A program made the translations under genes and the position numbers. The notes beneath the pieces were generated by a model that saw nothing but the letters and a program-made list of their open reading frames with translations, had not been told where the DNA came from and did no database searches. Positions 2,204-41,374 of a DNA stretch of 64,000 bases are shown here, one piece after another. Positions within the stretch are counted from its first letter, which is position 1. Every line of letters starts with the position of its first letter. The stretch is taken from IMG/VR virus record IMGVR_UViG_3300037572_000374, positions 1 through 64,000 of that record; one strand, given 5' to 3'. Origin of the DNA: a virus.

Positions 2204-3388
2204 ATGTCATTCAATATTCAAACTCATCGAGAGTTGACACAAATAGAGACAAGGCAAGATGTCGGATTAGGGATCATGCGTTGGGGAAAGGATAATACTT
2301 TCCCACAGACATTAATTAATGTCATCCAACAATCTCCATCAGCAAAGACAGCTATAAGTAGAACTGCAAAGTTTTATAAAGGAGCAGGCTTTGATGGAGA
2401 GAATGAAATAATTAATGCATATGGATTGACTTTGAAAAAGTTAGTAGGGATCCTTGCAGATGATTATGCAAACTTTGAAGCATTTGCACTTCAATTGAAT
2501 TATAATCTAAAAGGACAAGTTACTTCAATGAATCCAATTAGAATAGCTACATTAAGATTTAATGAGTTTGATGAATTGAACTATGCATCGAAGGTTGGGT
2601 ATCATCCTAACTTTGGAAGAAATAGTGAAGTAGTCAAAAGTATTGATTCAACTGTAGCAGCTGGAGATATCAAATGGTTTAATAGATTCAATCCTAAAGC
2701 TGTTGAAGCTCAGATTGAAAAAACCAAAGGAGGTATTTCAAATTACTTAGGACAAGTACTTTACTTTAGTGAAGCAGGACATTCATCTTATCCTATTCCA
2801 CCATTGCAATCAGGAATCAATTATGTACTTTCAGATGTAGAGAATTCTATATTAGTAAGAAAAGAAACATCAACTGGATTCATTAACACTTATATGTTAA
2901 AGACTACAATGGACTCAGAAGACTCAACTTTGATAGCTTTAGAAAGAGCAATCGAAGAAGCACAAGGTGCAAGAGGAACTGGGAAAGTAATTACATTCTC
3001 AGGATTAAGTCCTGAAGAAGTATCAACTACACTACTTGAAGAAATGGGTGGTGGTGGAGCTGGATCGAAAGCAATTATCGAATCAGCAAGAATGGCATTT
3101 GAATTAGACAGAGAAGTAATTACTGGAGCATATTTGATCCCACCAGCATTGGCAGGTATTGATCAAAAGACTGGTCTTAGTGGAGCTGATCTACAAGAAG
3201 CATATTATGTGTTCAATGCAATTACTCAAGGTGGTAGAGATGCTATCGAAAGTGAATTGAATAATGTACTAGCTAATTCTATATTCAAAACCCAAGATGT
3301 ATCAATCAAGAAATTATCTTTAGACGTTCAAGAAGAACGAATGGAGGGAGAAGATAATGAGGAGATGTTAACTAATAAATCAGAATAA
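2204..3388 (+). CDS. Portal protein
   Basis: WGKDNTFPQ start and YPIP / ITGAYLIPP motifs typical of Bacteroidota phage portals; next to terminase. Confidence 0.75.
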   Translation: MSFNIQTHRELTQIETRQDVGLGIMRWGKDNTFPQTLINVIQQSPSAKTAISRTAKFYKGAGFDGENEIINAYGLTLKKLVGILADDYANFEAFALQLNYNLKGQVTSMNPIRIATLRFNEFDELNYASKVGYHPNFGRNSEVVKSIDSTVAAGDIKWFNRFNPKAVEAQIEKTKGGISNYLGQVLYFSEAGHSSYPIPPLQSGINYVLSDVENSILVRKETSTGFINTYMLKTTMDSEDSTLIALERAIEEAQGARGTGKVITFSGLSPEEVSTTLLEEMGGGGAGSKAIIESARMAFELDREVITGAYLIPPALAGIDQKTGLSGADLQEAYYVFNAITQGGRDAIESELNNVLANSIFKTQDVSIKKLSLDVQEERMEGEDNEEMLTNKSE

Positions 3389-3390
3389 CT

Positions 3391-3897
3391 ATGTATGATG
3401 TAAGTTTAGAAAGTAGATTGATATCTTCTGACATTGCTGACATGATGCAAGATTATGTTTCGATTCAGTTAGATATAGACAACACAAAGATTAAAGCAGC
3501 AGCTCTAGTAGCTCAAGAAATAGATATAGCAAGAGTAATTACAAAAGCCAACTTGGATAGAGTAATTGATTTAGATATTTATGATGAGACTATTCCAGAT
3601 GCTGATTTAAGTCTTAGAGCATTGTTGGTGGCACCTTGGTGTTACTATACATATGCAAGATGTCTTACAATGTTCCAAGGAACATTCACAGACTCAGGTT
3701 ATGCTGTTGAAGCAGAAGCCACAGATAAAGATGCTGCTAAGGCTGTAGCACAAGAAATGAAAAGTATAGGTGACAGTTTTATGTTACTTGTTACTGAATT
3801 CCTCACAGCAGAGGATGAAAGTACTTTAGCCGATGATAGCAAACTAGCTCCAAGAATCCGAGTAATGGGAGGAAAGGAGAATAGGGCATCTAATTAG
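3391..3897 (+). CDS. Putative head-tail adaptor/connector
   Basis: Position after the portal, size, helical content. Confidence 0.45.
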   Translation: MYDVSLESRLISSDIADMMQDYVSIQLDIDNTKIKAAALVAQEIDIARVITKANLDRVIDLDIYDETIPDADLSLRALLVAPWCYYTYARCLTMFQGTFTDSGYAVEAEATDKDAAKAVAQEMKSIGDSFMLLVTEFLTAEDESTLADDSKLAPRIRVMGGKENRASN

Positions 3898-3906
3898 TAT
3901 TCTACT

Positions 3907-3973
3907 CAGTAGCATGGTTGGCACATTGACATCATCCGATGCATGTGTGGAGGTTCGATTCCTCCACTACTAA
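3907..3973 (+). ncRNA. tRNA-like element (acceptor stem plus T-arm, no D stem)
   Basis: GGAGG-TTCGATT-CCTCC T-arm; CAGTAGC/ACTACTA acceptor-like stem (5 of 7 pairs); central hairpin GCACAT..CATC-ATCC-GATG..ATGTGT. Confidence 0.45.
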
Positions 3974-4019
3974 CTAAATGCAAAGTAATAGTACTTTGCA
4001 TAATTTAATTTTAATTATT

Positions 4020-4193
4020 ATGAGAGAAACAGAAGCTCTTTTAAAACTAGTGGTATCAATATTGACAGCCATTATTCTTTTCCCACTTACATTAGTTGTA
4101 GGAGTGTTGAGAATAATCAAATCAATCTTATCCATAATAGAAAAAACAATCTTAGCATTCATAAAGAATGTAAGACAAGAACTAATAAAATAA
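4020..4193 (+). CDS. Small membrane protein
   Basis: Hydrophobic N-terminal half; ATG at 4020 has an A/T-rich leader. Confidence 0.55.
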   Translation: MRETEALLKLVVSILTAIILFPLTLVVGVLRIIKSILSIIEKTILAFIKNVRQELIK

Positions 4194-4198
4194 TAACA

Positions 4199-4612
4199 AT
4201 GGCAAGATCAATGAAAAATAGCAAACGAAAGGAAGCTAAGCTTTTGGAAACGAGAGCAGAATTTGTTAGAGCAGCTTTGGATGCAGGACACATATCGAGA
4301 AAGGATATATGTAAGGCAACTGGAATACAACTTCATGAGTTAGCTAATCTATTTACACTAGACAGAAAAGTGTATGGAGAGTATGTAGTGAGAAGAAAGA
4401 CTATTTCAGATATAGCATCTGATAATATTCTTGACATAATAAATGATCCAACTCACCCACAACACTTTCAGGCATCTAAGTACATTTTAACAACATACAA
4501 ATCAGATTTGGATGAAGTACTTGAGAGTCAAGATTCAGAGGCTATGAACGTATCTATAGGAGGAGCAAGTAAAGCATCCCCAATAGTAATTAAGTTCGGA
4601 GATAGCGAGTAG
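4199..4612 (+). CDS. terS: Terminase small subunit (putative)
   Basis: N-terminal HTH-like segment, C-terminal beta strand (PIVIKFG), directly upstream of TerL. Confidence 0.65.
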   Translation: MARSMKNSKRKEAKLLETRAEFVRAALDAGHISRKDICKATGIQLHELANLFTLDRKVYGEYVVRRKTISDIASDNILDIINDPTHPQHFQASKYILTTYKSDLDEVLESQDSEAMNVSIGGASKASPIVIKFGDSE

Positions 4613-4631
4613 TAATTATTAAAACACAAAG

Positions 4632-5900
4632 ATGGGAAGACCTAGAAAAGTAGAAGCGGCACCAATCGAATTAAATATCAATCCAACATTCAAACCATTA
4701 TTTATGGATGAAATGGATATGCCTAGATACTATCAATTATTTGGTGGAAGGGGATCTGGTAAATCGTTTGTAGCTGCTTTGGCTATGGTTCAATTAACCT
4801 ACAGTAAATATGAACACAAGATACTTTATCTAAGACAGACAATGGCATCTTCAGATGATTCGGTTGTAGCTGATATAAAAGCTGCAATAAGATTAATGAA
4901 TGCAGAAGCTGACTTCAGAGAAAGTAAAGGAACGATCACAAACATTACAACTGGAGCAACAATTTCTTTTAAGGGAATAAGATCAAGTGGATCAGCAACT
5001 GCAAAGTTGAAATCTTTATCTGGAATCACAACTCTAGTAGTTGAGGAAGCAGAGGAGGTAGAATCGTTTGAAGAATTCTCTAAGGTGGATGAATCAATTA
5101 GGATTGCAGGAAAGCCATTAAAGGTTATTCTTATTTACAATCCAACATCTGCATTACAATCTTGGATCCACAAAGAATGGTTCATAGATGGAAGACCGAT
5201 GGAAGGAAGGAGTGATACAATTTACATGCACTCAACTTATTTAGATAACGTTACCAATCTGAATCCATCTGTAGTAAAAAGATATCAAGATCTTCAGGAA
5301 AGTAATCCAACTTACTATCTTAATACAATTATGGCTGAGTGGACTTTAGAGACTGCTGGTAGAATGTATGCTGGATGGGGAATGTATCCTGAGCTAGAAC
5401 AAGAAGGAGATACTTGGTATGGATTAGATTTTGGTTATGGTGGTAAAGATAGAACCTCAATGATTAAGATTACTTGGATTGATGAAGTGTACTATGTTGA
5501 ACAAATGTTCAGTGAGTCCAAACTTTCAATTAGAAGAACTCTTACTAAGATGAGAGAATGTCAGATACCATTCAATGCAAAGATATATGCCGATAGTGCT
5601 ATGCCATTACTTATTGATGAGATAAGAAGAGGTGGTTACAGAACAGTAAGAAAAGCTACTAAAGGAAATGTTGAAGCAGGGATTAAGAAGATTCAGAATA
5701 AGGACATAGTATTAATAGGAGATCAGTCAACACATTTGTTTCATGCTTACATGACATTTGCTAGAGACAAGAATGGAAAACTTCCTCACGAGCCAGATGA
5801 ATTGGCTGCAATGAGATATGGAATTAATTCTAAGACTCCAACTAAGAATCCTGGAAAGAATAGACCAGTAAGAGCAAGAAGAAGAAAAGGCTTCTTATAA
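4632..5900 (+). CDS. terL: Terminase large subunit, PBSX-like
   Basis: Walker A GGRGSGKS, Walker B LVVEEA, YNP coupling motif, nuclease motifs GLDFGY and YADSA. Confidence 0.93.
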   Translation: MGRPRKVEAAPIELNINPTFKPLFMDEMDMPRYYQLFGGRGSGKSFVAALAMVQLTYSKYEHKILYLRQTMASSDDSVVADIKAAIRLMNAEADFRESKGTITNITTGATISFKGIRSSGSATAKLKSLSGITTLVVEEAEEVESFEEFSKVDESIRIAGKPLKVILIYNPTSALQSWIHKEWFIDGRPMEGRSDTIYMHSTYLDNVTNLNPSVVKRYQDLQESNPTYYLNTIMAEWTLETAGRMYAGWGMYPELEQEGDTWYGLDFGYGGKDRTSMIKITWIDEVYYVEQMFSESKLSIRRTLTKMRECQIPFNAKIYADSAMPLLIDEIRRGGYRTVRKATKGNVEAGIKKIQNKDIVLIGDQSTHLFHAYMTFARDKNGKLPHEPDELAAMRYGINSKTPTKNPGKNRPVRARRRKGFL

Positions 5901-5912
5901 ACATATCAAAAC

Positions 5913-5950
5913 AAAAAAGACTTAACCATTAAACGTTAGGTCTTTTTTTT
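5913..5950 (+). terminator. Intrinsic terminator
   Basis: GACTTAAC/GTTAGGTC hairpin followed by a T-run. Confidence 0.75.
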
Positions 5951-5980
5951 GTTTACATTAATTTTAAAAACAAATAAAGA

Positions 5981-6175
5981 ATGGGAAAGATTAGATTAAA
6001 CACAGTAAAGCACTATACTGGAACATTTGCTGAATTACCAGCAAAGCTCCCATATGGTGACACTTACTTCTCCACAGATGATCAAAGACCTGTTCTTACT
6101 GGTTACACAACAATGGATATGCAAAATATGGTATCTAACGATATTGAGAATGTAACAATTCCAGGATTAAGTTAA
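5981..6175 (+). CDS. Hypothetical protein
   Basis: ORF between two terminators with A-rich leader. Confidence 0.55.
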   Translation: MGKIRLNTVKHYTGTFAELPAKLPYGDTYFSTDDQRPVLTGYTTMDMQNMVSNDIENVTIPGLS

Positions 6176-6213
6176 TAAAGTAATACTGCAGTGATGCACT
6201 ATGAATGTAAATT

Positions 6214-6244
6214 AAGGGAATGGCTTCGGCTGTTCCCTTTTTTT
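6214..6244 (+). terminator. Intrinsic terminator
   Basis: AGGGAATGGC-TTCG-GCTGTTCCCT followed by a T-run. Confidence 0.85.
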
Positions 6245-6278
6245 ATTTGTAAAAAATTTCGTTTTTTTTTAATTAAAA

Positions 6279-6311
6279 GTTGCCTCGTATGTTTGAAAAA
6301 GAGTATCTTTA
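6279..6311 (+). promoter_or_regulatory. Host-RNAP (Bacteroidota sigma-A type) early promoter, GTTGC-N19/20-TATCTTT(A/G); representative of about 27 copies
   Basis: + copies at 6279, 6720, 9995, 10079, 10627, 10979, 11288, 11420, 11559, 11719, 12442, 12591, 13051, 41904, 43843, 46371, 49392, 53607, 62062 and a partial one at 63287; - copies at 10738, 11635, 12518, 14985, 17385, 19576, 19920, 20982, 21088; matches the TTG (-33) / TAnnTTTG (-7) consensus. Confidence 0.85.
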
Positions 6312-6354
6312 TCTTGTCAAACAAATAGAATATTAAAACTTAAAAATTAAAATT

Positions 6355-6708
6355 ATGTTATCAAACGAATTAAGAGTAGGTCAAGAGTTAAGAGAAGATT
6401 TAGAATCAAAAGGGATTAACATCTCAACAGAATTTGTAATCAAAGTATGGGAGAACCAAGCAGAGTTTATCTTAACTGATAAAGATGGTAAAAGAGTGTT
6501 TGGAGGGAATGTAGATGTAAATGGATTTGCAGATTGGAATACTGGAGTAAGAGAAATCAAGATTGGTAAAGGTTCAATGGGAGCTTTTGATATGACTTGT
6601 AAGGCATCAGTAGAGTCTACTTTATTAATGGCTGAGTTAATTAACAACTTTGAAGAGTTTTCTGAGTCAGTAGAGTTTGCAATGGATAGAATTGCTAATC
6701 AAAAATAA
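6355..6708 (+). CDS. Early hypothetical protein
   Basis: Directly after an early promoter; phage-like codon usage. Confidence 0.75.
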   Translation: MLSNELRVGQELREDLESKGINISTEFVIKVWENQAEFILTDKDGKRVFGGNVDVNGFADWNTGVREIKIGKGSMGAFDMTCKASVESTLLMAELINNFEEFSESVEFAMDRIANQK

Positions 6709-6766
6709 ATCAATTAAATGTTGCTCAGTCAGAAATGGCTGAGTATCTTTATCAAAAATAATAATC

Positions 6767-9331
6767 ATGGAGACAATAGCAATAGAATTTTTAACACAAG
6801 ATCAAGTAACATTAACTGAAGGATTGCTTCAGATGTTAGACACACAAGTAAGTAGTAACACTTTTATATTCGTAGTAGAGTTTGAAGAGTTAGAAATGCT
6901 TCTAGATGAATTAGACACAGAGATGAACTTAGATTTTGTAGTAACTAAATTAGACTAACGATATGAATAACTTAAAGAAAAAAGTATTAGAAGTAAAGGT
7001 AGGAGATACCTTTAAGTGTATAAAGGAAGGAGACTTCTTTACAGTAGGGAGCGACTATAAAGTTCAAACTTGTGACTATAAGATAGGAACAGAATCTACA
7101 GATGTAGAGTTTCGAGATGACGAATATGATCTTCATATGGTAACAGAATCATTTTTATTAACTAATTTTAAAAAACAATAAACTATGTCAAGAATAGCAC
7201 AGTACATTTTATTACTAAAACAACAACCACAAACATTAGAGGTGAAAAAAGAGATTCAGAACCTACAACAACAATTCGACATTAAGGAAGAGAAAAAATA
7301 TCCTGAAGGATCTTTACTTAATAATTTAACTCCTTCAGATTATCAATTAGACAATTAATATGGAAGCAAACGTAACATTCAATGGAGTACCTCTAGTAAT
7401 AATTTATGACTATCATGAAGGAGAAGAAGGTACATGGGACTATCCAGGTAGTGCAGCAGAGGTAGAACTTGAGGCAGTATTCCCAGAAGATAGTGAAACA
7501 GATATCTTAGACATCTTTACATGGAATCAACAAACTGAACTAGAAGATATAATTCTAGAACTTAAAAGAGACTACTAATGAAGAACAGAGAATTCAAGTG
7601 GATAGTAGGAGTGATCAAGAGTTGCAAGACTTTCCCACAAATACAGAATGCAGGTAACTTAGTAGACATATACTTTAAAAAGTATGATGATCAATTGGAT
7701 CGCTTTATGTTGAATAAGTGTATGGGAGATACAATGAACAAAGTAATAATGGATAAATATAATTAACATGAAAATATTAAATTTAGTAGAAGAGGCTGAG
7801 ATAGCAATCATCCAGCAAAAAGTAATTACAAAGGCAATGGTAGAGTTATCAGTTGAGATTCAAGCTCAGCATGAGATAGATTTAAAGCATGCTTTCAATA
7901 GAGGTAAGGCTAGTATGATGGGAGCATTTATGATGAATGCAGATCAATACTATGCTAAGTTCTATACAGATGAGATTTAGATTATGGATAAAAATAAAGA
8001 GAAGAAGGATCCAAAGATGGAGGTCCTTAGTTGGATGGGTACAGCTTGTATGCTAGGCAGTCCATACTTATTAAGTTATCCAATAGGATATGTGTTAGGA
8101 GCAATGGGAGTAGTATTAATAACTCCACCTTGCTATAAAAATAAACAATGGAATCTGGTATTGCTAAATGCAAGTAGCTTTATAGGATACACATTACAAT
8201 TCTTAGAATTAATTTAAAACAATAATAAAATGGAACTAGTAAGATATGAAGTAAGAGTAGGAATGTTCAAAGGAGTGCTGTTTGGCATGAGGGAATATGA
8301 ATTCATGAATAAAGATGTGAGAGAGAAGGACATTGTATTCTACTTTGGTATCTTTCAATTAGTAATAACTTTAATATATAATTAATATGACAGCAATACA
8401 ATTAATAGCTCTGTATACAATCTATGTAGATATGGTAAAGCAGAACAGAATGACAATAGAGGAAGCAATAAGTAATTTAGCAGCAGCTGGATTAACAACA
8501 ACTGATTATGATACATGGTATGATGAAGAAGGAAAGAGATTCAACTTCCCATTAGAGATACCATTCCCAAAACAAGATACTAATCAATTAAAACTAGAAC
8601 TATAATTGAGACTAACTAAAAAAATATAACATATATGGAGACGAATGATATACCTAAGGGTTGGTGGTTGAATGTTACCCTAATGGCTAGAAAGGAGAAC
8701 CCTAGTTGGATAGTTGGAGTACTAAGAGAAGGAAAGACTACTTGGATAACAGAGTATGTTAGAGGCGACTTAAATAACTCTAGAGAGGCATACAAAGTAG
8801 GAGTGGCTTTCATACAAAAGTGGAGAGCTAAGAGAGGATTAACTATAGACCCTAAATGGGAACGACAAATGGAAGAAGGTAAATTCTAATATAAAAAAAG
8901 AAAAAGAAATGTTGATAGAAACAAAGAAAGCATTACATAGAGTACTAGATGAAATGATAGGACGACTATCTTCAAAGCCAAGTGAGATAGGACTATGTAA
9001 GAGCTACATCTACTTAGACGAGGTGATGTACCTCACAAGAGAATACAAGGGAATGGAGTTAAACTATTTCGCTGAATGGTTTGCTCAAGGTAGGATTATA
9101 ATAAGATAGAAAGAAATTATGGTACACATAGAATTAGTAACTGGAAAAAAGATTACAGTAAAAGGAACACTGCATGATGTAGTTGGGACGTCTGGACCAA
9201 TCTTTAGATTAACCATGGTAACATTTGAAAGAGTATGGAACATGGATGGGAAACGTTATGTTGTAGAATCAGAAGAACAACAGATATTTTTACATGAAGA
9301 TAAAATAGTTTATATGTATGAATCACAATAA
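6767..9331 (+). other. Cluster of about 12 short early ORFs of unknown function (6767, 6963, 7360, 7578, 7768, 7984 membrane, 8230, 8387, 8635, 8909, 9119 and others)
   Basis: Tightly packed, co-oriented ORFs of 55-85 aa with A-rich leaders. Confidence 0.7.
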
Positions 9332-9924
9332 AAACTTCAGCTAGCTAAAAAAAAAATAAAGGAAGAGAATAACCACAACTGGAAGAACTACATAGAAGAC
9401 ATATAAGAAGGAGGGGGAAGAAAGAAGAGAGAGGTCTGTTGATTCATTGAGCCAACATAAACGGTCATTCACTTTTTTTAATGTACTTTGTAGACTAATA
9501 AACATCGTTTCTAAACAATTAACTATCAAAAGTGGTATAGTTTATCGTTTTTTACTTTATAGTTTATTATACGCCTTTAGAATAAGTCTCTGAGGAAGTG
9601 AGTGTTAAAGGAAATAGTTAAAATCTAGTGATTTTTATACAACACAACTTTTGTAAAAAGGGACGTTACAAAAAAGTAGTAAAACAGACCGGAATAAAGT
9701 GAGCGATTTTTTTCGATCTGAGGCAACAAAAATCCAATTTATTTTTAAAATAGTTATGAACCGAGCGAGAAACCTGGTGTTGATAACTTTTCTAGTCAAA
9801 AGTTGCTAGTTTAGAAAATAGTTGAACAGCAAAAATGGAGTAGGGGTCACTTTTTTGAACTTCCCACTATTGGTGCACAAAAGTGTTTTATTCTCTGGGG
9901 GAGGGGGGAGGTGTTTCAAAGCTA

Positions 9925-10071
9925 TACCGGAGTCAAACTCCTTATTTATAATCGTTATAAATAAGGAAATTATTCATAAAAAGATTGTTTTATTGTTGCT
10001 AGCTAGAAAAGAAGTCCGTATCTTTATAGTACCGTAGTCAAACTCCTTATTTGTAATGAGTATAAATAAGG
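9925..10071 (+). repeat. 42-bp imperfect direct repeat (9925-9966, 10030-10071), each copy containing a CCTTATTT-N11-AAATAAGG palindrome
   Basis: Read directly; related palindromes at 11676-11698 and 12559-12581. Confidence 0.8.
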
Positions 10072-10146
10072 CCCTGCTGTTGCACCATTGAAAACTATTT
10101 AGTATCTTTGTGCTGATGCTTTACATATATATATAAAACAAAACAC

Positions 10147-10599
10147 ATGAAAGAACAATTCAAAACCATACCAGGCTTCAGTCTGTATGAAGTAAGTGAC
10201 CAAGGAAGAGTGAAGAGCTTCCAACGATGTGGTAAGGAACCTTATAGGATCCTCAAACCTGGAACCAATAAAGGAGGTTACAAAGTAGTTATCATAAAGA
10301 ATGATGAAGGAAAGCTGAGAGGAATGAACATTCATGTACTAGTAGCTATCACCTTCCTCTCCCATGTACCTGAGAGGGGAGTAGTTGTTGTAGATCATAT
10401 TGATAATAATCCTTCTAATAATTTTTTGAATAACTTACAAATAATCTCATGTAGAGAGAATAGTAGTAAGGATCGAAAGAGCTTAGGGATCTATCATAAG
10501 AAGGATGTAGACAAGTATGTAGCTTCTTGGCAAGGTAAGTACATAGGTATCTACAATACAGAGGAGGAGGCTAGGAACGAACAGAGAAAATTTATTTAA
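10147..10599 (+). CDS. NUMOD4-HNH homing endonuclease
   Basis: IPGFSLYEVSDQGRVKS (NUMOD4), HVLVAITF, VDHIDNNPSNNFLNNL (HNH). Confidence 0.92.
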   Translation: MKEQFKTIPGFSLYEVSDQGRVKSFQRCGKEPYRILKPGTNKGGYKVVIIKNDEGKLRGMNIHVLVAITFLSHVPERGVVVVDHIDNNPSNNFLNNLQIISCRENSSKDRKSLGIYHKKDVDKYVASWQGKYIGIYNTEEEARNEQRKFI

Positions 10600-10799
10600 A
10601 AAAAAACAAAAATAATTCATTTTATTGTTGCACGGGTGGAAACTATGGGGTATCTTTATACTGATATTCCAGAAACAGATGATTTAAAAAAAAGAATACA
10701 CTCCCCCTCACTCTTTGTTTACCCCCTCCGGACAGTATAAAGATACTACTATTATATATACTATGCAACAGTTAACAAGAAAAATATTAAAAAAGATTT

Positions 10800-10950
10800 G
10801 TGCAGTAAAAAGTCTGTACTAAAAAAAAAGAGCATACTAAGTACAGACAGTCCAGGCAAAAGCCTGCACAGTACAGAATGTCCAGACAGTACAGGATAAT
10901 AGTATGCACTAAGTATGCTGGTACAGACAGTGCAGTAAAAAGTATGGACA
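10800..10950. repeat. Degenerate short tandem repeats (AGT[A/C]CAG[A/G]C-like units) bounded by GCAGTAAAAAGT
   Basis: Repeated AGTACAGAC / AGTCCAGGC / AGTACAGAA / TGTCCAGAC / AGTACAGGA units in a non-coding stretch. Confidence 0.55.
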
Positions 10951-11038
10951 AAAATAATTTAAAATAAATGAAATAAATGTTGCCTGGTGTTTGTAAAAGC
11001 ATTATCTTTATCTTGTCAAACAATAACAAATAGAAATT

Positions 11039-11266
11039 ATGAAAAACGATTGGGCAATTATCAAATCAGATTTAACATCAAGTCAAAAGGATGCAGCAGA
11101 ATATTTAGTAGATGAGTATAGAAATCAAAAAGGAAGTAGTATTTTAAAAGCTATCAAAACTTGTAGAAAGAATATGTTAGCTCAAGGGTGGGATATCACG
11201 GAGAGAGATTTACAAGATGCTTGTGCATTCCATAATGTATTGAACGAGTACGCATCAACAATTTAA
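11039..11266 (+). CDS. Early hypothetical protein
   Basis: Has its own early promoter at 10979. Confidence 0.75.
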   Translation: MKNDWAIIKSDLTSSQKDAAEYLVDEYRNQKGSSILKAIKTCRKNMLAQGWDITERDLQDACAFHNVLNEYASTI

Positions 11267-11319
11267 TTAAAAATAAATCAAATAAAAGTTGCCTGGTAAG
11301 TATAAGTAGAGTATCTTTA

Positions 11320-11388
11320 CATCGTCAGGCAAAGGCCTAGGGCATCAGGAAAACAGAGCTACATTTAATTATGTGGCTCTTTCCTTTT
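11320..11388 (+). ncRNA. Putative small RNA unit 1 (promoter, about 65 nt, terminator hairpin)
   Basis: No ORF; shares CATCAGGA..ACAGAGCTA-loop-T[GA]GCTCTTTCCTTTT with unit 2. Confidence 0.45.
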
Positions 11389-11451
11389 ACAAAAGTTTTT
11401 TAAAATAAATGAAATAAAAGTTGCCTAGTGTTTGAAAAAGACTTATCTTTA

Positions 11452-11527
11452 CCATGTGAATGGGACATATGAACTCAAAGACATCAGGAGCACAGAGCTA
11501 ATCAGAAATGGTTAGCTCTTTCCTTTT
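11452..11527 (+). ncRNA. Putative small RNA unit 2
   Basis: Paralogue of 11320-11388 with its own promoter at 11420. Confidence 0.45.
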
Positions 11528-11774
11528 GCAAAAACTTTTGAAAATAATTCATTTAACTGTTGCTAGTATGAAAACTATGGAGTATCTTTATCAGTACCAT
11601 TCGACCCCATTTGATTTGACACCAAAGGGAGTGACAAAGATCCTCCTTATCTTTCTATCTGACAACAGCAAGCGCTTATTTATATTCATTCTGGATAACA
11701 AAAGTTTTTTAAATAATTGTTGCCTGGTAGTTGCTTATGGAGTATCTTTGTCATGTCAAACAGATATAGATATT

Positions 11775-12059
11775 ATGAAAAATCAAGCAAAAGTACAACA
11801 AGTAGAAAACGGATTAAGAGCATTAGGTTTAAACTTCCCAGTAGGAGTAGAGAAGATAGATCATGAAACAGTAATCTTCATTACACACACTCCTAAGAAA
11901 GGGAATGCATTTGGAGTAGATGTAGAGACTTTAGATAGATACTTCAGTGCAGATGTAATGTTAAACAAGTACCATGACATGATCAAGTACTGGAGGTTAA
12001 CTGAGGATGAGAGAATGGCTATACAAGGTCACCCAATGCAGTGGTGTTTAAATAACTAA
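11775..12059 (+). CDS. Early hypothetical protein (start reassigned to 11775)
   Basis: Promoter at 11719 and leader point to MKNQAK as the start. Confidence 0.75.
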   Translation: MKNQAKVQQVENGLRALGLNFPVGVEKIDHETVIFITHTPKKGNAFGVDVETLDRYFSADVMLNKYHDMIKYWRLTEDERMAIQGHPMQWCLNN

Positions 12060-12073
12060 TTCATATAGACAAG

Positions 12074-12355
12074 ATGAAAAAACAAATAAGTAAGACATAT
12101 AAGTGGCAGTGGGTAGATGTAGATGGAAGATGGTGTGGCTGGAATTGGACAACAGCCTTCAGTAAAGCTGAAGCAAGGAGAGCAGCTAAGAAGATGCAAT
12201 CTCCAGTAAGAGAAATTGTATATGATGTTAGAGTAGAGGGAAGGATAGAGCAAAGGACAGAGACGTACAAAGGTATGTTCTTAGATGAGAGTTCTCTTAG
12301 GAGAGTAACCAATAAGGAGTTCACAGATACATGGAATAGATCATATCAAGATTAG
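12074..12355 (+). CDS. Early hypothetical protein
   Basis: Co-oriented ORF followed by a hairpin terminator at about 12376-12402. Confidence 0.7.
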   Translation: MKKQISKTYKWQWVDVDGRWCGWNWTTAFSKAEARRAAKKMQSPVREIVYDVRVEGRIEQRTETYKGMFLDESSLRRVTNKEFTDTWNRSYQD

Positions 12356-12647
12356 ATTTGTTTGACGATTAATCTAGGAGGGGACCATTATGGTCCTCTC
12401 TACTTGTGTCCAAAATCTTTTTAAAACTTTTTTGGTTTACTGTTGCATAGTAAAAAGATAAGGGTGATCTTTATGATACTGTTCAGTGTTAAATGATTTG
12501 ACAACAGATTGTATCTACAAAGATACTATAATGGTTTCAACTAGACAACAAGAAAGTGTTATTTATATTCAAACTAAATAACAAACAAATGTTGTGAGAT
12601 CGTTTGATTGGTAGTATCTTTATATCAAAGAAATAAATATAAGTATT

Positions 12648-12860
12648 ATGAAAATTCAAGTATTAGATTTAATTAAAGACCTACAAGCTCAGATAGCTGT
12701 ACTCGAACCTATGTTAGGGGAAGAGGTAGATGTACATTATTCTTCAGATGACATTAATGGTTATGGAGGAGACATTACTCAAGTACAATATTGTTCAACT
12801 GACATTCATGTTGTAGAGGAAGGAGTAATACATATTGCAACTAACTTTGAAAAGATATAG
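12648..12860 (+). CDS. Early hypothetical protein
   Basis: After the promoter at 12591. Confidence 0.7.
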   Translation: MKIQVLDLIKDLQAQIAVLEPMLGEEVDVHYSSDDINGYGGDITQVQYCSTDIHVVEEGVIHIATNFEKI

Positions 12861-13101
12861 GTATGGAAAGATATGATGTGGAATACAGAGATGTAGAAGG
12901 AGACAATTATGAACAGAGCTTTGATACAGAGAGAGAGGCTTGGGAGTTCATTAGAAGGCTTCAAAAGGAGGACTGCACAGTAGTTCAAACTTGGGTTTAT
13001 ATTGATGATGAATATAAGGGAGGATTTTATTAAAAATAATTTAGGTAGCTGTTGTGTAGTAAATATATAATGGCTATCTTTATATCAAAGAAATAAATAT
13101 T

Positions 13102-13251
13102 ATGACAGTAGAAACAACTTATTTTGTAAAGAACAAATCAACAAACGAACTTTTACTTTCAACTGGAATCAAATCTAGAGCAATACTAAATTGTGACACT
13201 AGAACTGAGTACATAGAGGAGAGAGTAACAACAATAAAAACCATATACTAA
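13102..13251 (+). CDS. 49-aa early protein ending in the first attC-like half-site
   Basis: MTVETTYFVK...TIKTIY, downstream of promoter 13051. Confidence 0.55.
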   Translation: MTVETTYFVKNKSTNELLLSTGIKSRAILNCDTRTEYIEERVTTIKTIY

Positions 13252-13272
13252 TACGTTATAAACTGAAAAATT

Positions 13273-13428
13273 ATGAATTGGATAACTAAAAAGTTGATGC
13301 AGTACCAACTTAAAAAAGCAAAGAAACAATTAACAAAGCAAGAATATTCATTTACAAAACGTGCCTTTGGTGATATGGTGAAAAGTTATGAAAGTGCAAT
13401 ACGCTTTCTTGAAGCAAATAGTAGATAA
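13273..13428 (+). CDS. 51-aa cassette-borne protein
   Basis: MNWITKKLMQ...LEANSR, between inverted core sites. Confidence 0.6.
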   Translation: MNWITKKLMQYQLKKAKKQLTKQEYSFTKRAFGDMVKSYESAIRFLEANSR

Positions 13429-13494
13429 TTTTATTGTTTATAACTTATATGGTTATGATTAGTTGAGATTTATTAAAACTTAAAATTAAATAAA

Positions 13495-13899
13495 ATGAAA
13501 AATTTAGAAAAACAAGCAATAGGAATAGTAGCACAACTCTTTGATTTAGCAGAAGTGCCAGTAGATAAGAGGCAACAAATAAATGATGTTGCTTATGACT
13601 ACGTAACTGAACAATTAATTATAACCGATGTTAGCAAATGTAACTGCGATGTCATAAATTTAAAAACGATGATTGATAAAGGACAAAAGATTAAAATTAA
13701 AGACAATGTAGTGGTCGAATTAATGAAATTAGGTTTTGAAAAAGGTTCGGCTGAAAGTATGAAAGTGTTTGAAAATACAGAACAGATTGCTCACGATATT
13801 TACGAAGATGAAGGCACTACATATGTAACTGTTGAAATGTGTTGTGAAATACCACTACAATGTTGTGAAGCGTTGGAAGAAAAAGAAGCTACATCTTAA
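13495..13899 (+). CDS. Hypothetical protein reading through an attC-like crossover (QLIITDVS)
   Basis: Starts in the hairpin loop; GTT at 13630 is an in-frame Val codon. Confidence 0.75.
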   Translation: MKNLEKQAIGIVAQLFDLAEVPVDKRQQINDVAYDYVTEQLIITDVSKCNCDVINLKTMIDKGQKIKIKDNVVVELMKLGFEKGSAESMKVFENTEQIAHDIYEDEGTTYVTVEMCCEIPLQCCEALEEKEATS

Positions 13900-14009
13900 A
13901 CATTGATTAAAAGAACGAAATCTAGCATAGTTTTTATACTGTGTTAGCTTTCGTTTTAATGTTTGCTAACGTATTTGTATAACCGCAGTTGCGATAAATT
14001 AAAAACAAA

Positions 14010-14276
14010 ATGAGTAAAGAAGCAGAAGAATTTTTTAGACAAAAGACAATAGAAAATGCTAAAAGACCAAGGATGAAGAAATTCCTTGCATTAGTAAACA
14101 GAGAAGCGGAAGGAAAGATTATGCAAGAATACGCTGACCAGCAATTCCGGCTATACGATGTTAGCCAACAACGTGAACTGTTATTAGCTTATCACAGATA
14201 TTTAACAAAAGAACTTAGTTTAGATTTAAACGAGTTGTGGGTAGATGAACATTTAAAAGCTAATAATTATTACTAA
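14010..14276 (+). CDS. Hypothetical protein reading through an attC-like crossover (QFRLYDVSQQRELL)
   Basis: Starts in the hairpin loop; GTT at 14160 is in frame; stop codon lies within TAAC. Confidence 0.75.
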   Translation: MSKEAEEFFRQKTIENAKRPRMKKFLALVNREAEGKIMQEYADQQFRLYDVSQQRELLLAYHRYLTKELSLDLNELWVDEHLKANNYY

Positions 14277-14525
14277 CCAATACATAAAGATAAATAACAT
14301 GAAGATAAAAATTACATTTGAACCTGGGATAGATTTCAAACCTATGGAAGGATGTGACAGTTGTATGACAATATATAATCCTGAGATACTAGACGATCCA
14401 AGTGTGAAAGAATACTTGAGGAGAACTAGTAAGAATAACGAATAAGTAATTTGTTTTTAATTTGTTTGATAGAGAGGTGGGACTTGTTATCCCACCTTTC
14501 GACATACACAAAAACTAATAAAGAT

Positions 14526-14987
14526 ATGACACTAAATGAGAAAAGAAAACTTTGGAGAGATGCTAACCCTGATAAGGTTAAAGCATCTAGAGATAAATGG
14601 AATCAATCTAACAAAGATAAGCTAGCAGGCTACAATAAGAAATGGAATGAGGATAATAAGGAAGCTAACAGAGCCATTAACTTAGAGAGACAGAGAGCCT
14701 ACAGAAAGACAAAGGTTGGTGTAGTTACTTGCATATATGGAGGTATGAAGGTTAGTAGTAAGAGAAGACAACACCCTGCACCAAACTTTTCTTCAAAAGA
14801 ATTGAGGGAGTGGATATTCTCTCAACCAAACTTTGAACAACTCTATACTGATTGGGTAGCTTCTGATTACAGCAGATGGATGAAACCTTCTTGTGACAGA
14901 ATAGACAGTTCTCTACCCTACACATTTGATAATCTTCAGCTAATGACTTGGAGAGAGAATGACAAAAAAGAGAAGTCTAACCTATAA
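14526..14987 (+). CDS. HNH-type endonuclease (start reassigned to 14526)
   Basis: C-terminal SCDRIDSSLPYTFDNLQLMTWREN His-Me finger variant; basic N-terminal repeats. Confidence 0.8.
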   Translation: MTLNEKRKLWRDANPDKVKASRDKWNQSNKDKLAGYNKKWNEDNKEANRAINLERQRAYRKTKVGVVTCIYGGMKVSSKRRQHPAPNFSSKELREWIFSQPNFEQLYTDWVASDYSRWMKPSCDRIDSSLPYTFDNLQLMTWRENDKKEKSNL

Positions 14988-15151
14988 AGATCACCTATTA
15001 CTTTCAACCATGCAACAGTTAATATCATAAAGTAATAGCATAATCACTAATGGACATAACCAAAAGTGAATAGAGATAGAGAGGACCTCTGAGGATTGAA
15101 CACAGGTAAATAAACAAGGAAAGGACCTTTGTTCAATCAAACATAGGTAAC

Positions 15152-15199
15152 AAAAAAAAAGACCCTAGAGATTAATTACTTCTCTAGAGTCTTAGTTTT
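15152..15199. terminator. Bidirectional terminator between the converging early units
   Basis: A-run, GACCCTAGAGA/TCTCTAGAGTC hairpin, T-rich tail. Confidence 0.7.
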
Positions 15200-15432
15200 A
15201 TTAAGTGAGGCTGTGCCTTAGGAGATCTCTTTTGAGATACAGAGCTGATACTCTTTCATCCTCCTCTCCTATCAGAGAGAGTTATTTTGTTACACAGTTA
15301 TGAGAAACTTCTTCTCGTCCTTTGCTCAAGTTCATTATCTTGTCCTATTATTATAGATGCTCTACTTTAAGCTAACCTCCGTCTGGAGACTTGGTAGTAA
15401 TGTTACCCCAAGACCTTCTATAAACAATTAAA

Positions 15433-15600
15433 TTAATCATTTCCGTTAGGGCAACACCAGCCGTTTACCTTTATAGTTTTACCATCACCATATTTTTCAA
15501 TTATCTTAATTGCTTTTTTCATAGCTTTACCGTCTAACGGCTTACCGTCTGTTTGTGTAGGACACCCACACCACCCACATCTAAATAAGTTTGCATTCAT
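15433..15600 (-). CDS. 55-aa Cys-rich cassette protein
   Basis: MNANLFRCGWCGCP...GWCCPNGND, translated by hand. Confidence 0.55.
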   Translation of the reverse strand: MNANLFRCGWCGCPTQTDGKPLDGKAMKKAIKIIEKYGDGKTIKVNGWCCPNGND

Positions 15601-15642
15601 AATTATTAATTTAAAAGTTCATATACAATTCGTTGTAGGCAA

Positions 15643-15891
15643 TTAAAGCCTTTCCATTATTTCCGAAAGCCTATCACTATTATGCGGTTGGCAGTTATCA
15701 TAAGCAAAGTCTTTTAAATCTTCTAAAGCTTTTAACTGTTCGCTTCGCCCCACAACATCGGTTAAAGTTAATTGCTCAGTTTTGTACTCGTTTAAATAAG
15801 CATCCATTGCTTTATGTATTTCATCCCATTGCATAGGCGTTAATCTACCTATCATTGGGTGTAATTTTAAAATGTCTTGTTTGTTTTTCAT
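15643..15891 (-). CDS. Hypothetical protein reading through an attC-like crossover (QLTLTDVVGRSEQL)
   Basis: ATG at 15891 lies in the loop; core GTT at 15756 is in frame. Confidence 0.7.
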   Translation of the reverse strand: MKNKQDILKLHPMIGRLTPMQWDEIHKAMDAYLNEYKTEQLTLTDVVGRSEQLKALEDLKDFAYDNCQPHNSDRLSEIMERL

Positions 15892-15956
15892 TTTATGTTT
15901 ATTTAATTCTGTTAATATCCCACGCAACTAACCATATACTAATACGTTATAAACAA

Positions 15957-16097
15957 TTAAAAATAACCGCTTTCGTGCAATCTAATATAAGCCTCGCAAT
16001 TTGCAAGGTTGCTTTGGTACGCAACACTATCATCATCTGCATTTAATACTTGGTAAGTATCGTTCATAAGTAATTGTACTCTAAAATTTCGTTCCAT
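15957..16097 (-). CDS. 46-aa cassette protein
   Basis: MERNFRVQLL...HESGYF, between core sites 15946 and 16125. Confidence 0.55.
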   Translation of the reverse strand: MERNFRVQLLMNDTYQVLNADDDSVAYQSNLANCEAYIRLHESGYF

Positions 16098-16188
16098 AAT
16101 TCATTTATTTTTAAAAGTTAATAACACCGCATATAATTCATTTGCAACTTGTCTGTGCGGTAAGGCAAACAAATCATATTCGTTTCCG

Positions 16189-16392
16189 TTATAAACAATT
16201 TAATACTAAACTTTTACCTTTCAATATAGCATAGTCTTGTATCTGTGTCATAAAAAGCACAACTCCACTATTATTAGGTCTGTGCTTACTGTACATTAAA
16301 AGCATACCAAAAGAATTATTGTATTGTTCAATAGTTTTACTGCTTTTTAAACACTTGTAAATTTTGTCTAATTTTTTAAATTCTGTTTTCAT
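16189..16392 (-). CDS. 67-aa cassette protein
   Basis: Stop codon lies within the inverse core site. Confidence 0.65.
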   Translation of the reverse strand: MKTEFKKLDKIYKCLKSSKTIEQYNNSFGMLLMYSKHRPNNSGVVLFMTQIQDYAILKGKSLVLNCL

Positions 16393-16509
16393 ATTTCCGT
16401 ATTAAAAAGTTAATAACAACGTATAAAATTAATACGCTATGATGGTCAGTACTTTAATTTAAACTTCTGTAATAGGCGTACTAACCTTATACCTATCAGT
16501 TGGTGATAA

Positions 16510-16734
16510 TTAGGGCTTATCTCCTAAAAAAGAAAGTCCTTCAAACAACTCTACATATTTGCCAAATACGTTCTTAACTCCAAGTATATTAAATATAATA
16601 AGGCTTATAAGCATAGGTACATATAGCAAGGCTACTACAAACAAAACCCTAACTATAACCAACACCCTATATAAAATATTAAATAGTATTGTTTCTTTAA
16701 AAGGCTTGTCGTTTACTTTTAATTGTATTTTCAT
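16510..16734 (-). CDS. Membrane protein reading through an attC-like crossover
   Basis: Starts in the loop of site 16655-16793; hydrophobic C-terminal half. Confidence 0.6.
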   Translation of the reverse strand: MKIQLKVNDKPFKETILFNILYRVLVIVRVLFVVALLYVPMLISLIIFNILGVKNVFGKYVELFEGLSFLGDKP

Positions 16735-16785
16735 TTTTATAAAATTTAAGTTATTATTAATTTAACATTCCATATATGCGAAACG

Positions 16786-16929
16786 TTATATGCAATTAAA
16801 CATTCGTTGTATATCTTCGTTTGGTACATCTTTCCAAAACATCTGTCTAAACATACAATAGTATTTATTTGTTTTCTCTTGTTTTTCTGTTGGCGTTAAG
16901 TTATTCCACCATATATTAAAGTTCTTCAT
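16786..16929 (-). CDS. 47-aa cassette protein
   Basis: MKNFNIWWNN...MFNCI; flanked by perfect 9-bp inverted cores GTTATATGC/GCATATAAC. Confidence 0.6.
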   Translation of the reverse strand: MKNFNIWWNNLTPTEKQEKTNKYYCMFRQMFWKDVPNEDIQRMFNCI

Positions 16930-17434
16930 CTCTCAAAGTATTAAAAGCATATAACAAAGGCTAAAATTAATAGCCTAAATACGCTTAGTTTTTTAATTGA
17001 TTAGTTCATTACTTAGGCTACTAATCTTAGCCAAACCGTTAGGCAGAACATTAAAACGATTTGCCAACAATGTATATAAACAATTTCTCAAATGATTGGA
17101 TCCTCTTTCAACCCATTTCACTCTTTTATTTAACTACATCCCTTAGGGATGTAAGCAATTGTCCTTAATGTATTGAAGTTTGTTAGTGGGATTGCAATGC
17201 CATCTTTGAATAGCTAGCCTATTATTTAACGTGACTTACACACGGTAGTATTACTATAGCTTGACAAGCCTATTAACATGTTACTTCAAAATTTTCAATG
17301 AACTTATGTCTTGGTAGGCTAGTGAGAGACTTGCTCTGCTTCTTCGAGAACCTTTCCTAAAAAGGCTGCCTTCTTTCGACATGATAAAGATACTCTTATT
17401 TAAACATACGGGGCAACAAAAAGTTTAATTATTT

Positions 17435-18351: not shown

Positions 18352-19904
18352 AATAATTGATTTGGTTTTTATGTTGTTTTGCAATTGGAGTATTAAAGAG
18401 TGGTCCCACATTAACAATATTGTTATCCATTACATAATCAAATGCAGCTGGGCACCCCTCTATCTCCCAAACACGTCCAGTGCTGTCTTCAGTTACTACA
18501 AATATGTTTACATCATACTGCTCTTGCATTATATCATACTCTATGTAGTAATCGTTACCTTCTATTTTAAATTCGTGCACAGCTCCTCTTAGCAAAGCAT
18601 CTACCGATATTACTCCTTCACGCATTGTCATTTTTTTATATTTTTTAAAATTTGTGTAATTGATAATGGCATTACATCTTCCATTGTTGGATTCTCATCC
18701 CATTCTACTATTGCATCCGCCGGGTATCCTTTCAGGATTCTTTCACACTCCTTGTCTTGGACAAAGTCTGTTACTGACGTATTGATAAGGTGTCTCTTAC
18801 CGTTTATGACTAGTACCTCCATTAGATTATTGCTTTTAAGATTTTAATAGCTACCATTTGTTCTTCCTTAGTCATAGACATAAACTTTTCATTGAACTGT
18901 TCGTTGTCTACTAAGAACTGTGCTATCTTTTTATTCTGTTGTTTAGTTATAAATTTTTTCATAATTAATATTTTAAATTTGTTCCAAATGTTTTGTTGAA
19001 GTCTTCACATCCTATCTGAATAGGTCTCTCCTCAACAATGTACTCTCCTTTTCTAAGAATCGTTTCATACCCATCGAACCAATCGTTAAGCTCCTTTTGC
19101 CATTGTGCCTTTTGCTGCTCAGTACTGAGACATGCTCTTACTTGTGTCAATTGTAATTGACTTAAAATTAAATCCATTTATCTTTTGTATTTTGTGTTAT
19201 GATCTCTCCTTGGGTACTATAAAAAGTTTCTACAATTTGATTACCAGCATCTACAAATGCATACATTACATTTCCGCACGTACCATATAATGTTAAATCT
19301 TTTGTGTGTCCTAATATATTTTTCATATCTATAAATTGAATACTTCAGCAACTGTTAAGGCAACTACCCCTAGTACAATTATCTGCACTATGAAGATTAC
19401 TGTTTGTTTGGTTTCAGCTTTCATTATGCTCTTGGTATAACTTGTTTGTTAGCAAAATGGTCTATCTTTAAACCATTGCTTAGTGTAACTGTGTACAAAG
19501 GTTTTGTACTTGTAATCTTCTTGTAATTAAAAATGTAATTTAATAATGCCCTCATAATATTTATTTTAATTTTGGTAAAGATACTCTATCTAGAAACATC
19601 TAGCAACTTTTATTTGATTTATTTTTAAAACTTATTTGAAAGGCTTCTAAGCGATCCAAATAAGTTTTTGATATATCTTATCGTTTAGCAAACATTAAAG
19701 CTCTATAAACAAGTCATATGGAGTCTGAGCAAAGTACATTGGCATCAGTCCTTTAAGGTCTATAACAAATCCATATCTCATGTTGATAAGAAAATCATTG
19801 TTAGTTAATTCTTCAACTAGGGCTTCTCCACAAGTTGGGTACTTTATTGCATATGCATTTAGTGCTTCAAGTACTTGAGGTTTCAATTTTTGTAATAAGT
19901 TCAT
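18341..19904 (-). other. Cluster of short early ORFs (18341-18631, 18628-18822, 18965-19177, 19695-19904 and several under 60 aa)
   Basis: Driven by minus-strand promoters at 19576 and 19920. Confidence 0.65.
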
Positions 19905-20034
19905 AATTTCTATTTTTGGTAAAGATACTCTAAATGAAAACACTAGGCAACATTTATCTTATTTATTTTCAATTATTTATTAATTTTCTCATTTTTTCTA
20001 CTCTCCTGAGGACCACTTTTTAAAGGGTCTAACT

Positions 20035-40684: not shown

Positions 40685-41374
40685 ATGAACGAGAAAAGCA
40701 TATTTTCCATTTTGGAAACAATTGAAAATCCTTATTTAATTACATTGATCTTTCTCATCATCTCGCTTGCGGTGATATATAAAGAAGCAATTATTAAGAA
40801 TGTAATAGGTAAGTTTTTCAAAAAGAAAAAACCAGTACAAAAGATTCAAGATCTACTTCTGCATGATGTATTTGCTACATTAGAAAGAGCTACACATGAA
40901 GTTAAGATAATGAAATTTTATACGAACAAAAAGTACGACAAAGTTAAGTCTAAGATGTGTTATGATTTTACAAAAAGCAAATCAAGGACTTGTGCTATGC
41001 ATATGAAAAATCTTGCAAGATATCCTAAAATGGAGACAATGTCTAATGCAGAGTTGAAAAACTTTATTATAGATGCTCAAAACAAGATGCATAAGGATTA
41101 TGTAGATAACACCAGAAATCTTTGGTTAGCGAAAGGAATATTGGAAGAAGATGTTGATCATGTGATACATCTATTTGAGACATTTAGATACGATGTAGTA
41201 AACTCTTTTGAACATAGAATAGAATCTATCTTTGGAAGTAGTTTTCATTCAACAAATTTTGACAAGACTTTAGCTGTTTTTAATATGTGGGCAATGGGAA
41301 TAGATTTACTACCTAGAGATATGCAAATAACTTTTGAAGGATTAAATGGTAAATTTAAGAACATCAAGTACTGA
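40685..41374 (+). CDS. N-terminally membrane-anchored protein, possible lysis regulator
   Basis: Single TM helix; directly upstream of the endolysin. Confidence 0.45.
   Translation: MNEKSIFSILETIENPYLITLIFLIISLAVIYKEAIIKNVIGKFFKKKKPVQKIQDLLLHDVFATLERATHEVKIMKFYTNKKYDKVKSKMCYDFTKSKSRTCAMHMKNLARYPKMETMSNAELKNFIIDAQNKMHKDYVDNTRNLWLAKGILEEDVDHVIHLFETFRYDVVNSFEHRIESIFGSSFHSTNFDKTLAVFNMWAMGIDLLPRDMQITFEGLNGKFKNIKY

Follow-up and report, generated by a model that had tools for sequence, protein, structure and literature searches.

Four small open reading frames (ORFs) at positions 13,495 to 16,734 of a phage genome start inside the loops of hairpins that resemble integron attC sites, and the question this locus raises is whether such hairpins serve to exchange genes, parts of genes, or neither. 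The window, i.e., the whole stretch of DNA analysed, is the first 64 kb of the 78.5-kb virus record IMGVR_UViG_3300037572_000374, which has a CheckV completeness of 98%. It is AT-rich, its sole DNA matches are weak ones to Cellulophaga and Tenacibaculum phages, the stretch is found in marine metagenomes, and Bacteroidetes-type early promoter repeats lie on both sides of the hairpin region; the source is a lytic marine Flavobacteriia phage. The interpretation we favor, with a probability of roughly 60%, is that the ORFs are phage gene cassettes carrying at their 5′ end a folded site of the Bacteroidota integron-like kind, where whole genes would be exchanged at an AAC triplet and N- and C-terminal parts joined at a GTT triplet, probably through a host Xer-like recombinase.

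The hairpins follow a common grammar, AAC-N6-arm1(15 nt)-loop-arm2(15 nt)-NNT-GTT. The first-pass annotation had placed the leader and ATG of all four ORFs inside the hairpin loop, and this was borne out, with loops of 146, 150, 150, and 81 nt. It had also read the GTT as an in-frame Val codon in three of the ORFs, and the codon indeed lies 135, 150, and 135 nt from the ATG in o13495, o14010, and o15891, respectively; the annotated peptides across the junction (QLIITDVS, QFRLYDVS, and QLTLTDVV) were confirmed, and the fourth ORF (ILYRVLV) uses another frame. The arms of the first hairpin, H1 (GGTTATGATTAGTTG / CAATTAATTATAACC), pair at 15 of 15 positions, two of them G.T, and the stem is present in the minimum free energy and centroid folds of the sense strand alike. 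The arm sequences of H2 covary relative to H1. An undecayed counterpart of H4, which pairs at 15/15 positions and has the same N-module, is found in three of the related loci described below (L017, L028, and L061).

The hairpin is a real, selected structure. A genome scan with this geometry returned 9 matches with at least 13 pairs, several of them register-shifted readings of the same hairpins, compared to 1 and 0 with displaced partner windows. Pattern scans of IMG/VR yielded 61 and 57 loci (L numbers), and a generic scan across the fetched marine phage loci identified 132 distinct hairpins, of which 63 have a long loop. When copies were picked solely by the peptide linker that follows the GTT, at least 13 pairs at 140–153 nt were seen in 16 of 22, compared to a maximum of 11 in control windows. 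The scan required the AAC and GTT triplets, and their invariance in the aligned copies is by construction; the triplets are also present, independently, in copies found via one arm or the downstream linker alone. In an alignment of 55 sequences, both partners have changed in 12 of the 16 stem pairs (149 cells), and the covariation score is 0.43, compared to 0.10 in shuffles (0/500) and 0.02–0.09 with slid partners. Two G.U (G.T) wobble pairs are kept in 48 and 54 of the 55 sequences. The stem measures 15–16 bp without bulges, its two G.T wobbles become A.C mismatches on the opposite strand, and the unpaired spacer (6 nt on the 5′ side, 3 nt on the 3′ side) varies in sequence. Many stem alleles occur, always with matched arms, and several coexist per contig or genome, which points to base pairing and away from recognition by a single protein. 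Pairing is kept through arm changes that replace encoded amino acids (T to A; IITD to RLHN), and the arm codons show almost no synonymous variation; thus, selection acts on the nucleic acid. A retron, a group I intron, a miniature inverted-repeat transposable element, and operator looping were set aside, as the loops are variable coding sequence and different matched arm alleles occur in one genome.

Judged from sequence comparison, combinatorial shuffling of protein halves is real as an evolutionary pattern. Each of the three ORFs with the in-frame GTT was searched against a set of 5.8 billion proteins, and N-only, C-only, and full-length homologues were counted. The counts for o13495 were 37, 3, and 1, respectively, with 34 different continuations; its N-only matches are metagenome proteins, mostly 79–98% identical, with alignments that mostly end at residues 46–48, and its C-half is found alone (P0002, P0004) or behind a different N-terminus (P0003). 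The o15891 search returned 18 N-only matches, each with a different continuation, along with 20 C-only and 9 full-length ones. For o14010, the numbers were 33, 25, and 28, the N-only matches having 31 different continuations; 12 N-only matches end exactly at residue 51, and the C-only homologues sit behind other N-modules. Alignment ends cluster at the Val of the GTT, and the N-halves of all three ORFs recur at about 90–98% identity. This is the outcome that the first-pass annotation had named as support, with the same N-halves joined to many C-halves and homology that breaks at D-V/GTT; the reverse, C-halves behind different N-halves, was also found. At the DNA level, a 196-bp module (13437–13632) is 93% identical on four unrelated contigs, and the identity ends at 13632, at the GTT. 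N-modules are 96–98% identical between phages whose other shared proteins reach at most 55%. The o15891 N-module occurs with other C-halves in L017 and L028, and L008 combines an o13495-type N-module with downstream DNA that is ~69% identical to the region of the o15891 C-half. In 47 of the 63 long-loop hairpins, an ORF starts in the loop and has the GTT in frame, and 42 of these 47 ORFs run more than 25 codons further, which exceeds random read-through in AT-rich DNA by far.

In an AlphaFold model of o13495 (mean predicted local distance difference test [pLDDT] score, 60), the first ~40 residues are helical with a pLDDT of ~80, and the remainder is of low confidence. The C-half of o13495 also exists as a free-standing gene of 74–79 aa that starts at the equivalent of Met58. 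Many phage C-halves are Cys-rich, with a CxxC...CxxC spacing like that of small zinc ribbons.

Alignment breakpoints identify both hairpin ends as hotspots of exchange among natural phages. In alignments of at least 95% identity, 41 of 96 internal ends fall within 8 nt of a hairpin end, compared to 2.2% expected; the AAC end accounts for 33 of these 41 and the GTT end for 8. With the threshold lowered to 90% identity, the breakpoints number 60 at the AAC end and 45 at the GTT end, both peaking at offset 0. Individual pairs of loci illustrate the pattern: L056 and L099 are 99.9% identical over 1541 bp and then part directly after GATGTTGTT, and L041 and L059 (99.6%) differ by a single 280-nt hairpin-plus-ORF unit bounded by AAC...AAC.

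The same hairpin family is found in bacteria, where it adjoins recombinases. When 185,579 species genomes were scanned, the arm pattern turned up in many Bacteroidota, where the copies form a ~125-nt non-coding repeat in arrays, with loops of 78–82 nt and some of 140–143 nt. In two Gaetbulibacter genomes, one hairpin follows each ORF, ~16 to 20 in one locus, and the arrays abut a tyrosine recombinase with Phage_integrase and SAM-like domains, which is its genome's best match to the integron-integrase model. Many of the cassette ORFs start with lipoprotein or signal-peptide-like N-termini. The consensus and both G.T positions are identical in bacterial and phage copies; the bacterial cassette genes lie opposite the G.T-bearing (folding) strand, and their loops are non-coding. 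These data support the view that the phage hairpins are true relatives, by homology, of integron-type sites, because they agree in grammar, conserved positions, and G.T wobbles with the Gaetbulibacter array repeats beside tyrosine recombinases, and on the same grounds the attC-like nature that the first-pass annotation ascribed to them was upheld. Gaetbulibacter aestuarii (L178) carries an insertion at ~7204–8396 with a 321-aa ORF (7404–8369) exactly between the 3′ arm and TGTT. It is probably an insertion sequence (IS) element, and the hairpin core may be a preferred insertion point.

Among viruses, a 32%-identical recombinase is the immediate neighbor of a long-loop hairpin gene on contig L002, and two cultured phages, Polaribacter phage P12002L and Cellulophaga phage phi19:3, carry members of the family. 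The long-loop hairpins of P12002L overlap annotated gene starts; two of these genes, gp41 and gp57, stop at or just past the GTT and thus encode loop-only mini-proteins. In phi19:3, the integrase gp036 was considered as a close relative of the array recombinase and rejected on comparison. Clusters of attC sites lacking an integrase (CALINs) have been described in lytic phages, including predicted sites in P12002L (Qi et al. 2023, PMC9892861), and one of these, P12002L_attC1, obeys the AAC-N6-stem-NNT-GTT grammar. Bacteroidales are reported to possess arrays with XerD-type recombinases and integron-like repeats (Ross et al. 2019, bioRxiv 10.1101/471110).

If the phage hairpins work as integron-type sites, exchange at the upstream AAC would move entire hairpin-plus-gene units, and exchange at the in-frame GTT would join any loop-encoded N-module to any downstream C-half, giving combinatorial two-module small proteins. 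The catalyst would probably be a host Xer-like recombinase acting on folded single strands. In classical attC logic, cleavage of the folded strand falls within its 5′ AAC. Here, the sense strand is the one that folds better, because its non-Watson-Crick pairs are G.T, which are A.C on the other strand. With the AAC cut site upstream of the leader, the canonical event would thus move whole genes, and such a whole-unit event fits the left-end excess among the most recent breakpoints. The rarer GTT events could arise when the opposite strand is used or when short homologies within the conserved 3′ arm recombine, and a site-specific crossover at the coding GTT is plausible. Translation starting within the loop may also melt a hairpin that would otherwise hinder expression.

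Some observations qualify only the crossover at GTT. At 97% identity or more over at least 400 bp, 16 breakpoints lie at the AAC end versus 3 at the GTT end, and a canonical cut would fall upstream of the leader. The claim of the first-pass annotation that recombination at G/TT makes the chimeras therefore stands in part: in-frame chimeras joined at GTT are there, but the most recent breakpoints favor the AAC end, and the phage has no recombinase of its own. Other observations weigh against the integron-type interpretation as a whole. In the 98%-complete phage genome, no tyrosine or serine recombinase, Y1 transposase, ERF, or RecT was found. The bacterial array recombinases score 100–130 bits against a cut-off of 265, with no match at model positions 180–238. 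Comparison of the bacterial cassettes yielded a single informative pair, complicated by the IS insertion at TGTT, and either hairpin end could be the cassette boundary. P12002L_attC1 gave no verified junctions with IntI1 (PMC9892861). The phage and bacterial stems differ from attC in their two fixed G.T wobbles and in having no extrahelical bases. The collection itself carries two biases: hairpins passed a pairing filter, so that the percentage paired is partly circular, which the variety of pair types is not, and loci were fetched via arm patterns, so that allele frequencies are biased. Finally, every boundary adjoins short conserved sequence, and homologous exchange could give equally sharp breaks.

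This last point leads to the alternative that survives best, namely, homologous shuffling of the kind known for PeSL elements, in which the hairpin is kept for another role (regulatory or terminator-type) and its 15–30 nt arms serve as portable homology without a site-specific enzyme. We consider it possible, in a tentative way. One arm allele is found in most copies, leaving 21–27 identical bases on the coding side, and the chimeras at GTT could equally come from recombination within this 21–27 nt of conserved arm plus core. ERF-family annealing proteins are encoded in 15 related loci, recurrent linkers past the GTT (SQQRELL, VGQSEQL, GCSLP, SKCNCD) mark exchange points away from the hairpin ends, and the PeSL cassettes of T4-type phages provide a precedent (PMC2839356, PMC4122927); the lack of a recombinase in the window phage also agrees with this explanation. 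The same phage, however, lacks ERF and RecT as well. The ends of the L041/L059 indel share AAC only, the same linker class stands behind at least 5 arm alleles that share only TGTT to its left, and the breakpoint peaks coincide with the triplets at offset 0. The site family, moreover, adjoins tyrosine recombinases in bacteria. A bolder extension of the integron-type interpretation is that host Xer-like recombinases use either folded strand, which would amount to programmed in-frame protein shuffling, with genes exchanged at AAC and modules at GTT, and would keep supplying phage populations with new small early proteins, e.g., for counter-defence; we regard it as doubtful.

An alternative of a different kind, which we consider improbable, is that the stem acts mainly in mRNA as a long-range helix round the translation start that controls translation, processing, or stability, with recombination as a by-product. 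Although C would be synonymous at both arm positions, the G.U wobbles are fixed; in the phages, the structure is without exception on the gene-sense strand, and the stem appears in the sense-strand RNA fold. In integron transcripts, attC hairpins have also been reported to affect translation of the cassettes downstream. Against this, the bacterial hairpin has the same G.T positions and is antisense to the cassette genes, and thus that mRNA cannot be what conserves it. Many sites have an intrinsic-terminator-like hairpin that ends within less than 10 nt of the AAC on its upstream side, so that transcription of the 5′ arm is uncertain; fold z-scores are weak (−1.2), and Rfam gave no match for the window or the bacterial copies at gathering or E-value thresholds. 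An ordinary paralogous family, with the upstream complementarity arising by chance in AT-rich DNA, is highly improbable: the first three proteins do have the motif QLxLTDV equally far from the start, with otherwise insignificant BLASTP similarity to each other, but this explanation is contradicted by the covariation (compensatory changes over many alleles, some at the cost of amino acid changes) and by the non-coding copies of the hairpin in phages and bacteria, and also by the near-absence of synonymous variation in the arm codons and by control windows that never attain the observed pairing.

The coordinates of the hairpins, ORFs, and related arrays are compiled in Table 1. The plus-strand array includes the gene 14526–14987, which matches PHROG endonuclease VII/HNH families (E 6e-9); this was the exception among ten ORFs searched against Pfam and PHROGs, which otherwise gave no significant family. 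The role in anti-defence or host takeover that the first-pass annotation had raised is conjectural. An HNH homing enzyme as a common partner of the hairpins was considered and dropped, since a homologue was found on one other contig only (loci L001 and L027). A tblastn search of three window proteins against cultured phages returned nothing significant, and no tRNA was found. About 0.4 kb of non-coding DNA flanks the minus-strand array on each side (15000–15430 and 17090–17420).

A ~50-nt promoter-like repeat is found at 10078–13083 on the plus strand and at 19564–19972 on the minus strand. It consists of TTGTTGC, ~20 nt, and then TATCTTTAT/G, fits the Bacteroidetes −33/−7 pattern, and precedes many small early ORFs on both strands. 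A reversed copy at 14984–15022 runs antisense into the HNH-like gene and may be an inversion relic. The 5′ element of the hairpin genes was itself considered as a host promoter and rejected, with no −33/−7 match by inspection. A solitary, inverted copy of a hairpin left end at 13242–13265 is identical to 15933–15956 at 22 of 24 positions (92%), and together with 13434–13460 it brackets the 51-aa ORF 13273–13428. The bracketing 36-nt inverted repeat (13239–13274 / 13425–13460, 75% complementary) is made of two hairpin left ends and resembles what an inversion, or an exchange between sites in opposite orientation, would leave behind.

Table 1. Hairpins and ORFs of the hairpin-associated region, with arrays and hairpins of related genomes. 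Positions refer to the window unless another genome is named.
Feature	Position	Strand	Description
H1, long-loop hairpin	13442..13632	+	AAC 13442-13444; spacer 13445-13450; 5′ arm 13451-13465; loop 13466-13611 (146 nt) with leader and ATG 13495; 3′ arm 13612-13626; GAT 13627-13629; GTT 13630-13632
ORF o13495	13495..13899	+	134 aa; N-module 13495-13632 (46 aa, ends TDV); C-half 13633-13896
H2, long-loop hairpin	13968..14162	+	AAC 13968-13970; 5′ arm 13977-13991 (GTATAACCGCAGTTG); loop 150 nt; 3′ arm 14142-14156 (CAATTCCGGCTATAC); GAT GTT 14157-14162; 13/15 pairs
ORF o14010	14010..14276	+	88 aa; N-module to Val51, then linker SQQRELL
Possible degenerate hairpin	14275..14466	+	13/15 pairs in AT-rich sequence; encloses entire 48-aa ORF 14299-14445; weak candidate
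H4, long-loop hairpin	15754..15948	-	GTT 15754-15756; 3′ arm 15760-15774 (CAATTAACTTTAACC); loop 150 nt; 5′ arm 15925-15939 (decayed); AAC 15946-15948; 12/15 pairs
ORF o15891	15643..15891	-	82 aa; N-module to Val46, then linker VGRSEQL
Short-loop hairpin	16123..16190	-	Loop 23 nt; 14/15 pairs; family motif; precedes ORF 15957-16097
Short-loop hairpin	16415..16501	-	Loop 42 nt; 15/15 pairs; family motif; precedes ORF 16189-16392
H7, hairpin	16661..16787	-	Loop 81 nt, holds ATG 16734 of the fourth ORF; 14/15 pairs
Fourth ORF	16510..16734	-	74 aa; peptide ILYRVLV; TGTT read in another frame
Short-loop hairpin	16953..17040	-	Loop 44 nt; 15/15 pairs; arms GGCTAAGATTAGTAG / CTATTAATTTTAGCC; precedes ORF 16786-16929
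Solo inverted hairpin left end	13242..13265	-	AAC, spacer, start of 5′ arm; repeat families D7/D15, inverted pair I24
Gaetbulibacter sp. array (L179)	3219-15012		Tyrosine recombinase, then ~20 co-directional single-ORF cassettes, each ending in a hairpin; at least 8 stem alleles
P12002L (L181) long-loop hairpins	31118-31313, 32492-32694, 39516-39709, 40762-40948		Overlap annotated starts of gp37, gp41, gp57, gp60
phi19:3 (L102) short-loop hairpins (n = 3)	3416-4900		Amid small genes, 0.5-2 kb from tyrosine recombinase gp036

Integron-type sites are known for moving whole genes. Here, the site overlaps the gene start and one of its conserved triplets is a codon, with dozens of in-frame chimeras joined at that Val codon in natural populations. 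If a recombinase drives the joins, this would represent modular protein assembly in viruses and would tie the integron-like arrays of hosts directly to the early regions, hypervariable as they are, of abundant marine phages. If the homology model holds instead, the hairpin is still a widespread and easily recognized boundary element that explains much of the mosaicism in these phages and helps to delimit their accessory genes.

The sites share with integron attC an imperfect hairpin, the AAC and GTT triplets, an unpaired spacer, and a variable terminal loop, and with integron cassettes the single site per cassette, the co-oriented arrays, and the strand asymmetry of folding. The bacterial relatives are also like classical integrons in that their cassette ORFs lie opposite the folding strand. 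In the phage, unlike classical cassettes, the gene is on the folding strand, the site is at its 5′ end, and the start codon is in the loop. The long-loop form, about half of the phage sites, holds in its ~146-nt loop a leader, a start, and ~45 codons, with GTT as a codon, and the sites give chimeric proteins, in contrast to classical whole-gene cassettes. The attC length range is ~57–141 bp. The short-loop copies measure ~68–125 nt and the four gene-start copies ~127–195 nt, and the long-loop sites (~190 nt) exceed the attC range, which may count against the integron-type interpretation. Unlike a complete integron, the phage has no adjacent IntI integrase, and the bacterial partner recombinase is Xer-like, below the model cut-off and without the integron-integrase signature.

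Three other systems invite comparison. The occurrence in virulent phages without integrase resembles phage CALINs (PMC9892861). The Gaetbulibacter arrays are likened by layout to rAID-1 arrays (bioRxiv 10.1101/471110), in which a XerD-family tyrosine recombinase stands at the 5′ end of co-directional cassettes of one gene each, with repetitive sequences between the genes. The rAID-1 arrays are chromosomal, with non-coding sites and immunity-type or secreted-protein cargo, whereas the phage version has no recombinase, a reversed gene orientation, and coding loops. Like the PeSLs of T4-type phages (Arbiol et al. 2010, PMC2839356; Comeau et al. 2014, PMC4122927), the phage hairpins are short conserved stem-loops in hyperplastic early regions that bound swapped modules. 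PeSLs are intergenic promoter-terminator units, and whole genes are exchanged by homology; the phage element, in contrast, overlaps coding sequence, and its relatives adjoin tyrosine recombinases. Also unlike PeSLs, the site has no sigma-70 or Bacteroidetes −33/−7 promoter box by inspection, and the early promoter repeat of the phage has another motif.

Shufflons and invertible segments (R64 pilV/Rci, the Mu Gin and P1 Cin tail-fibre systems, and phase-variable hsdS) join constant to alternative variable parts through in-frame sites. They rely on a dedicated invertase or recombinase at the locus, use short duplex sites, and switch within one genome. Here, in contrast, the variation is between genomes, both halves are variable, and the site is a folded hairpin. 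As far as sequence evidence goes, what appears new relative to the known systems is an integron-type site that overlaps a gene start, with a conserved triplet serving as a codon and chimeric proteins as the product.

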